24,000 bases of DNA from Neisseria lactamica NS19 (GTDB taxonomy: Bacteria; Pseudomonadota; Gammaproteobacteria; Burkholderiales; Neisseriaceae), in NCBI RefSeq assembly GCF_000193795.1, contig NZ_AEPI01000022.1; one strand, written 5' to 3'. The notes under the pieces were generated by a model that worked only from the letters and a program-made list of their open reading frames with translations, did no database searches and was not told the origin of the DNA. Of the stretch, positions 4,677 to 5,234 are shown one piece after another. The position numbers and the translations under genes were made by a program. The number at the start of each line of letters is the position of its first letter. Positions within the stretch are counted from its first letter, which is position 1.

Positions 4677-5157
4677 TTATTTTTCTTTTTTCAAAATACC
4701 GGATTCTGCAATTTTTTTGGCAATGTCTTTAGCCGACCTTTTCAGGATATCGCCGCTGTTTCCGCCAAATGCGCCCATTGCCAACATACCGTCGGTCTGA
4801 ATATGACCGACAATTTTCCCGCTTTCTTTATCAACGAGAGTCGTGACGATTTTTGATGTTGCTTTGCCTGCGCCAAAACCAACCAAATAACGTAAGGCAC
4901 GGTTTCCTTCATTAAAGTTTTCGATGTTGACATTAACATCCAAGTCATCGCCTACGGCGTAACCGAGTGCGGCTAATTCATGGTTTAAGTTTTGGATAAA
5001 AAAGCGCGCGGGTGTCAGATGGGATATGATCTTGGGAAAGATCGCGGATGGTGTAGCTACGGTAGCTTTTTTCTTTTTGGCTGAAATCAACAGTGCTGGT
5101 TGTCGAACAGGCCGATAAAGCCAATACTGATGCCGTCAGCGCGAGTAGTTTTTTCAT
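4677..5157 (-). pseudogene. DUF4410-like lipoprotein gene interrupted by a frameshift (or switched off by phase variation)
   Basis: The ATG at 5157 encodes MKKLLALTASVLALSACST, a signal peptide with lipobox LSAC. That frame stops at TGA 4980-4978. The remaining 137 aa ORF (4677-5090) is in another frame and has only a TTG start. Removing one T from the coding-strand T6 (plus-strand A6 at 4998-5003) gives a continuous ...DTRALFIQNLNHELAALGY... protein. The A5GA6 run at 5066-5077 is an alternative site. Confidence 0.7.
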
Positions 5158-5208
5158 AGTAAAAATTCTCTTCTTTAATGGATAAAATGCTTAAGTTTAA
5201 GCAAATCG

Positions 5209-5234
5209 ATTATAAATCTTTTTTTTTTTTTCAA
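5209..5234 (-). promoter_or_regulatory. Candidate promoter of the lipoprotein gene with a homopolymer in the spacer
   Basis: Minus strand reads TTGAAA (5234-5229), 14-nt spacer (10 A + GATT), TATAAT (5214-5209), about 51 nt before the ATG at 5157. Confidence 0.55.
5219..5231. repeat. Homopolymeric tract T13 (A13 on the lipoprotein coding strand)
   Basis: Counted directly: tt at 5219-5220 plus 11 t at 5221-5231. Confidence 0.95.

Follow-up and report, generated by a model that had tools for sequence, protein, structure and literature searches.

The locus and its distribution

The window, i.e., the whole 24-kb stretch of DNA that was analysed, holds 17 copies of the ATGCCGTCTGAA uptake sequence, and its proteins exactly match the consecutive RefSeq entries WP_019272003, WP_019272004, WP_019272005, WP_019272009 and WP_019272010, each named Neisseria lactamica and located on the same contig. 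One of the window proteins is named MFS transporter, and UniRef gives an allele in the same cluster the name galactoside permease. We take this transporter to be lacY, and the 1012-aa ORF beside it is presumably a beta-galactosidase, judging from the ORF list. The subject of the present analysis is a lipoprotein gene on the minus strand, situated between alr and a convergent DUF711/UPF0210 gene. The features of this segment are the following (window coordinates):

5335-6393, minus strand: alr, one neighbour of the lipoprotein gene
5294-5316: inverted uptake-sequence pair GCCGTCTGAA / TTCAGACGGC, just downstream of alr; likely the alr terminator; upstream boundary of the cassette
5234-5229, minus strand: -35-like hexamer TTGAAA, whose three A's are the first three of the A13 run
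5231-5219, minus strand: uninterrupted A13 homopolymer (plus-strand T13), which brings the hexamers to 14 nt apart
5228-5215, minus strand: spacer of 14 nt, made of ten A's and GATT
5214-5209, minus strand: consensus -10 hexamer TATAAT (GATAAT in N. perflava-type orthologues)
around 5200-5203, minus strand: putative transcription start
5176-5166, minus strand: Shine-Dalgarno-like purine-rich stretch AAAGAAGAGAA, 8 nt 5' of the ATG and kept in orthologues
5157, minus strand: ATG of the lipoprotein gene
5157-5107, minus strand: lipoprotein signal peptide MKKLLALTASVLALSAC, lipobox L-S-A-C, Cys17
5157-4978, minus strand: ORF1, truncated N-terminal product of 59 aa beginning with MKKLLALTASVLALSAC and ended by a premature TGA that the frameshift made (P0021, on one NCBI contig)
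5090-4677, minus strand: ORF2, 137 aa, annotated as WP_019272004.1, out of frame with ORF1
5003-4998, minus strand: T6 run, site of a +1 insertion (T5 in intact alleles)
4997-4677, minus strand: remaining DUF4410 codons, shifted to the +1 frame, within the 137-aa ORF
4603-4626: second inverted uptake-sequence pair, probably a bidirectional terminator shared with the DUF711/UPF0210 gene; downstream boundary of the cassette
3223-4581, plus strand: DUF711/UPF0210 gene, convergent, the other neighbour of the lipoprotein gene

The two uptake-sequence pairs that bound the cassette (4603-4626 and 5294-5316) are near-identical. The cassette could be lost by recombination between the two pairs, and its rarity in N. 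lactamica might be explained in this way. Short-read unitigs of other N. lactamica samples, found via the alr and DUF711 proteins, end inside both of these repeats and therefore carry no information on the gene or its tracts in those samples. As for the N. perflava-type loci (L002-L008, L011 and L012), the lipoprotein gene adjoins a DUF711 gene there too, and its other neighbour is a HerA/DUF87 ATPase gene, not alr. Thus, the gene has kept one neighbour and changed the other.

In a scan of one genome per species, the gene was found only in N. viridiae, N. perflava, Neisseria sp. HMSC078H04 and one Neisseria MAG, with more distant homologues in Rodentibacter, Campylobacter and others. The scan found no copy in the representative genomes of N. 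lactamica, N. meningitidis, N. gonorrhoeae, N. polysaccharea and N. cinerea. Lactamica-type products occur on 2 contigs of the protein collection, in which three lacY alleles occur on 294, 272 and 162 contigs (>700 in all), and exact-product look-ups with the 59-aa ORF and the 137-aa product (P0004) returned no further contigs. Judging by such counts, the lipoprotein gene is a rare accessory cassette in N. lactamica.

The coding region and its product

A second N. lactamica allele is available from L001, a third-party metagenome-assembled genome with the same gene order as the window. Over 4.9 kb, 97 substitutions separate the two sequences, and there are just two indels, one in the promoter (A13/A10) and one in the coding region (T6/T5). 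There are zero substitutions within 4500-5500, and the lipoprotein gene itself differs just at the two homopolymer runs. The lack of substitutions in 1 kb around the gene indicates that both indels, each of them in a homopolymer, are recent. The substitutions are unevenly placed: 67 of the 97 fall into 750 bp of the DUF711/UPF0210 gene (3250-4000), where divergence amounts to ~9%, and none into 1677-3000 or 4500-5500. Such clustering at 3250-4000 looks like a recombination mosaic.

The first-pass annotation of this DNA had described the lipobox-bearing N-terminus as being out of frame with the remaining 137 codons, and the frames of ORF1 and ORF2 confirm this description. It had also pointed to two short homopolymeric stretches, 4998-5003 and 5066-5077, as likely slip sites, of which only the former stands. 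Deletion of a single T in the T6 run (5003-4998) restores a product of 159 aa, which matches the intact N. lactamica protein P0001 from end to end at 100% identity, and T5 occupies the position of T6 in all orthologues compared. Since the repaired product equals the intact N. lactamica allele, the T6 run is the break. The latter stretch, A5GA6 at 5066-5077, does not vary among the orthologues and keeps the frame in each of them, and was therefore rejected as a slip site.

Two mechanisms by which T6 could be bypassed were also rejected. Programmed ribosomal frameshifting does not suit the site, as CTT-TTT-TAT misfits the usual -1 heptamer and the repair would need a +1 shift, while for transcriptional slippage a run of six bases is, by our reading of the sequence, too short to make the polymerase slip. 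The run (T5 when intact) is also shorter than the 11 nt of poly-A/T that mark a coding tract as a candidate for translational phase variation. It is important to note here that, of the ordinary spontaneous mutations of gonococci, none is commoner than a +1 insertion in a 5-nt A/T run: 90% of spontaneous nfsB mutants had gained an A in an A5 run (PMC2788575). A run so far below the 11-nt threshold, together with the ordinary nature of short-run +1 insertions in gonococci, argues that the break is a recent pseudogenising mutation and not a switch. Most likely, the lipoprotein gene in this isolate is a recent pseudogene produced by an ordinary slippage insertion, with translation ending after 59 residues. 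The idea of a second, frameshift-type switch in the coding region has to be given up, T6 being far below any phase-variation threshold, and the decaying pseudogene that had been offered as a fallback is a good fit to the coding-region break.

Membership of the product in the DUF4410 family, for which an HMM search had been proposed, is supported by scores well above the cut-off. The 137-aa ORF matches Pfam DUF4410 (PF14366) with an E-value of 1.7e-14 and 54.3 bits against a gathering cut-off of 26, the repaired 159-aa protein reaches 53 bits against the same cut-off, and homologues carry the same precomputed Pfam domain. The N-terminal segment MKKLLALTASVLA-LSAC conforms to the lipobox pattern [LVI][ASTVI][GAS]C, and the lipobox cysteine is invariant in an alignment of 14 homologous sequences. 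By these sequence features, a DUF4410 lipoprotein is the predicted product. The family name DUF4410 did not turn up in a full-text search of one paper library, and a profile search with the protein against PDB sequences gave nothing significant.

An AlphaFold model built from 14 homologues (pLDDT 82.4, pTM 0.78) had its best Foldseek matches in PelC (5t0z, 5t10 and 9h80), with an E-value of 6e-7, TM-scores of 0.43-0.65 across chains and an identity of 5-16%; weaker matches were TraT, LptE and small lipoproteins. Like PelC/LptE-like outer-membrane lipoproteins, the repaired protein has a lipobox, and its predicted alpha/beta fold may resemble theirs, in which case assembly into a ring would be suggested. 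Unlike in those proteins, there is no pel/lpt context (no pel or lpt genes were found as neighbours at the loci compared), identity is just 5-16%, and the PDB profile search showed no sequence-level relationship. The predicted PelC/LptE-like resemblance would be one of fold only, and we do not treat it as evidence of function. In Rodentibacter mrazii (L016, ~2980-3450), the DUF4410 homologue also appears frameshifted, with the signal-peptide segment out of frame with the rest; such an apparent frameshift suggests that the DUF4410 family may be readily lost.

The promoter and its A run in Neisseria

Upstream of the lipoprotein gene, the sequence bears out the arrangement that had been described before: on the minus strand, TTGAAA and TATAAT stand 14 nt apart, and A13 fills most of the gap. 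The tract lies inside the core promoter, covering the 3' half of TTGAAA and ten of the 14 spacer nucleotides as one run, and its coordinates (plus-strand T13 at 5219-5231) proved correct. It is the sole homopolymer longer than 8 nt within the 24-kb window; by our own estimate, the chance expectation for such A/T runs at the base composition of the window is ~7e-4. A consensus promoter scanner, which demands a spacing of 16-18 nt, did not report the A13 promoter.

A second TTGAAA further upstream (5253-5248) was rejected as the real -35, given that a spacing of 17 nt leads to the hexamer AAAAAA and that the site is not conserved in N. perflava-type loci. The plus-strand T13 was likewise rejected as the tail of a terminator, as it is not preceded by a G+C-rich hairpin and no plus-strand gene ends there.

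Relatives of the window allele show how this promoter came about. In N. perflava-type orthologues, which are 87-89% identical and come from at least 16 contigs, the promoter reads TTGAAA-GAAAAG[T/A]AAAAATGATT-GATAAT. Its spacer of 17 nt is A-rich but interrupted (GAAAAG[T/A]AAAAAT), and the 159-aa ORF is intact in all of these contigs but one low-coverage contig. At least eight more perflava-type loci came from a metagenome scan, the pattern of which (ATAAT followed by (N)TC) fits the N. perflava-type ATAAT-TCAATTT and not the lactamica-type ATAAT-CGATTT. N. viridiae encodes an intact protein, 97% identical, behind the promoter TTGAAAAAAAATGATTTATAAT, with A8 and a 10-nt spacer. A8 is the same in two N. 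viridiae isolates (L009/L010), and one of those contigs was seen in 16 samples.

The hexamer TTGAAA is kept in all Neisseria orthologues, and perfectly so even where it is out of register, as in lactamica/viridiae. The spacers observed in the latter lineage are of 10 nt (N. viridiae), 11 nt (L001) and 14 nt (the window), and none has the 16-18 nt expected of an ON state; a spacing of 17 nt is confined to orthologues without a pure tract. The ancestral spacing is that of 17 nt. As the same hexamers lie exactly 17 nt apart in N. perflava-type relatives, they are probably real promoter elements, and the earlier view of an A tract between true hexamers holds. The pure A tract is probably derived and length-polymorphic. 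In the assemblies, its length differs between the two N. lactamica alleles at hand (A13 in the window vs. A10 in L001; n=2, one of them a MAG). A comparison of tract lengths across N. lactamica, N. meningitidis and N. gonorrhoeae, which the first-pass annotation had suggested, could be made within the first species, and the gene was not found in representatives of the other two.

Among Neisseria alleles, dN/dS ranges from 0.10 to 0.23, which indicates purifying selection. By this measure, relatives have a functional gene even where the spacer is of 10-11 nt. We also considered a general tendency of DUF4410 genes toward promoter repeats and rejected it, as no simple-sequence repeat was found upstream of DUF4410 homologues in any of the four groups examined (Rodentibacter, Campylobacter, Acinetobacter and a distant Neisseria MAG).

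To pass the screening threshold of PhasomeIt, a poly-A/T run must have 11 nt or more and lie no further than 200 bp from the ATG (PMC5953494). A13 reaches this mutability threshold, and A10 (L001) and A8 (N. viridiae) are below it. Since A13 also lies less than 200 bp from the ATG, the gene would come up in standard screens as a candidate for transcriptional variation.

Expression and mutability of the A run

In the meningococcus, about 70% of start sites have a -10 box, and the -35 box is absent from most promoters (PMC5449619). Keeping in mind that intact alleles under purifying selection have spacers of 10-11 nt and that a -35 is usually absent in the meningococcus, we think that the gene is probably transcribed from TATAAT alone. 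For the same two reasons, the claim that it is off at the level of transcription is not supported.

The first-pass annotation had likened the locus to porA, opc and fetA, Neisseria surface-protein genes in which a homopolymer between -35 and -10 likewise sets the spacing of the hexamers. However, those tracts are poly-G or poly-C, have demonstrated high-frequency switching and come in lengths straddling the optimum, whereas here the tract is poly-A and the spacers of 10-14 nt are far from optimal. The analogy is further weakened by a study of human colonisation by N. lactamica, in which the recurrent contingency loci were all G/C tracts and A/T tracts were present among 98 candidate genes with 6-14-nt tracts (PMC6232127). 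Changes of the FetA-promoter tract recurred during colonisation, and the only A/T tracts that changed length were intergenic ones of 18-28 nt (PMC6232127). The supplements of that paper have no entry for DUF4410, alr or DUF711. Such behaviour of tracts during colonisation argues for low mutability at A13.

Several known promoters might nevertheless serve as precedents. The nspA gene of N. meningitidis resembles our case in having a poly-A just upstream of the -10 of a Neisseria outer-membrane protein gene, with a length that differs between strains; A5 or A6 sets the transcript level, and no phase variation was detected (Claus et al. 2019, PMC6389960). Helicobacter pylori sabA has a promoter-proximal A/T homopolymer as well, namely a T-tract whose length gives graded, multiphasic output via local DNA geometry (Aberg et al. 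2014, PMC4081817). In Mycoplasma hyorhinis vlp, and also in maa2 and vmm, transcription of lipoprotein genes is switched on or off when the spacer between -35 and -10 gains or loses nucleotides (PMC2268961).

Each of these systems also departs from ours in some respect. In nspA, 5-6 A's behave as a fixed allele, whereas here 10-13 A's are long enough to be mutable and overlap the -35. The sabA tract adjoins the -35, lies upstream of it and acts through the alignment of UP-like elements, whereas the present tract is inside the spacer. The vlp tract is poly-A. It belongs, however, to a multigene family with proven high-frequency variation in a different phylum, whereas here we deal with a single accessory gene known from sequence. 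Taken together, the nspA, sabA and mycoplasma spacer precedents make a graded effect of tract length plausible, and by analogy the length of the A run may plausibly act as an expression dial. The locus then stands as a candidate for the known class of loci with a homopolymer in the promoter spacer; the lipoprotein gene concerned is rare and, in this isolate, broken.

Overall, we lean towards the reading that this is a rare accessory gene and, in this isolate, a recent pseudogene, with a -10-driven promoter that contains a low-frequency mutable A run. According to such a scenario, the ancestral promoter would have been a canonical TTGAAA-17 nt-(G/T)ATAAT, still retained by N. perflava-type relatives. 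In the lactamica/viridiae lineage, the A-rich spacer would have lost 7 nt, leaving the -35 out of register, and the remnant spacer would have turned into a pure A run and then lengthened (A8, A10, A13). Transcription would most likely start from the consensus -10 alone, as in the usual Neisseria promoter type. The A run would behave as a low-frequency mutable tract whose changes of length shift promoter strength stepwise, with full strength reached, we infer, just at ~A15-A17. The insertion of one T into T5, stopping translation after 59 residues, would have been a matter of ordinary slippage.

One could also suppose that the tract is neutral, although we consider it unlikely. The -35 would then have been lost when the spacer collapsed, the -10 alone would drive the gene, and the length of the run would drift without a meaningful effect on expression. 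This supposition agrees with the fact that purifying selection maintains the gene although none of the spacers (10, 11 and 14 nt) allows functional contact with the -35, and with promoters without a -35 being the norm in Neisseria (PMC5449619). It is harder to reconcile with the perfect conservation of TTGAAA in the out-of-register lineage and with cases elsewhere in which single-base changes of A-tracts alter output, such as A5/A6 of nspA (PMC6389960) and the sabA T-tract (PMC4081817). Against the reading that we lean towards, it can be said that the expansion from A8 to A13 runs toward the 17-nt optimum, so that a real switch, and not drift, might have been selected for. It is tempting to suppose that we witness the birth of a contingency locus, in which a 17-nt spacer gave way to A8 and then to expanding A10 and A13 as a stepwise rheostat of a PelC-like surface lipoprotein. 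We regard this as a rather improbable reading; if true, it would represent rare promoter-spacer variation based on poly-A, not poly-G/C, in Neisseria.

A full two-level contingency locus, in which the A tract flips transcription through the -35/-10 spacing and the coding T run acts as a second reversible switch, appears less probable still. The position of A13, above the PhasomeIt threshold of at least 11 nt and less than 200 bp from the ATG, would suit it, as would the fact that both differences between the two N. lactamica alleles sit at homopolymers, and it could draw on the mycoplasma lipoprotein genes vlp, maa2 and vmm, switched by promoter-spacer indels (PMC2268961), and on the long intergenic A/T tracts (18-28 nt) that do vary in N. 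lactamica (PMC6232127). However, T6 does not come near any threshold, a spacing of 16-18 nt results from none of the three tract lengths observed, and intact, selected alleles have 10-11 nt spacers. In addition, the recurrent loci of the colonisation study were all G/C although A/T candidates were present (PMC6232127), and other DUF4410 genes are without an upstream simple-sequence repeat. Least probable of all, in our opinion, is a sequencing or assembly artefact, with a true T5 (and hence an intact gene) and/or miscalled A13 and A10. It is true that both differences fall into homopolymers, the class of base calls most prone to error, that the window comes from a draft contig of 35,961 bp and that the comparator is a third-party metagenome assembly. 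A homopolymer of 6 nt is called reliably by most sequencing platforms. Moreover, the 4.9-kb alignment contains no other indel despite several 7-nt runs (e.g., T7 at 4712-4718), and a cursory reading of the ORF list revealed no obvious homopolymer-type breaks in the other window ORFs.

If, as the favoured reading of a mutable A run would allow, tract length tunes expression, an A/T-tract promoter-spacer locus would be added to the N. lactamica phasome, and a first handle on the DUF4410 lipoprotein family would be gained. This phasome matters in view of the controlled human colonisation with N. lactamica by which meningococci are to be displaced. As the gene is rare and broken in this isolate, and standard repeat-screening software would flag the tract, there is little practical impact.

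Finally, we would like to comment on other elements of the window. It contains three Correia-type repeats bounded by TATAGTGGATTAA...TTAATCCACTATA, at 6570-6674, 7804-7958 and 16092-16196. The one at 6570-6674, between alr and an AsnC/Lrp-family gene, has no counterpart at that position in any of the other N. lactamica and N. viridiae loci of the comparison. In the long intergenic region after the AsnC/Lrp-family gene, the sibling small RNA NmsR/RcoF (Rfam RF02877) is present twice in tandem on the minus strand, at 7264-7354 (107 bits) and 7467-7554 (87 bits), the gathering score being 52.
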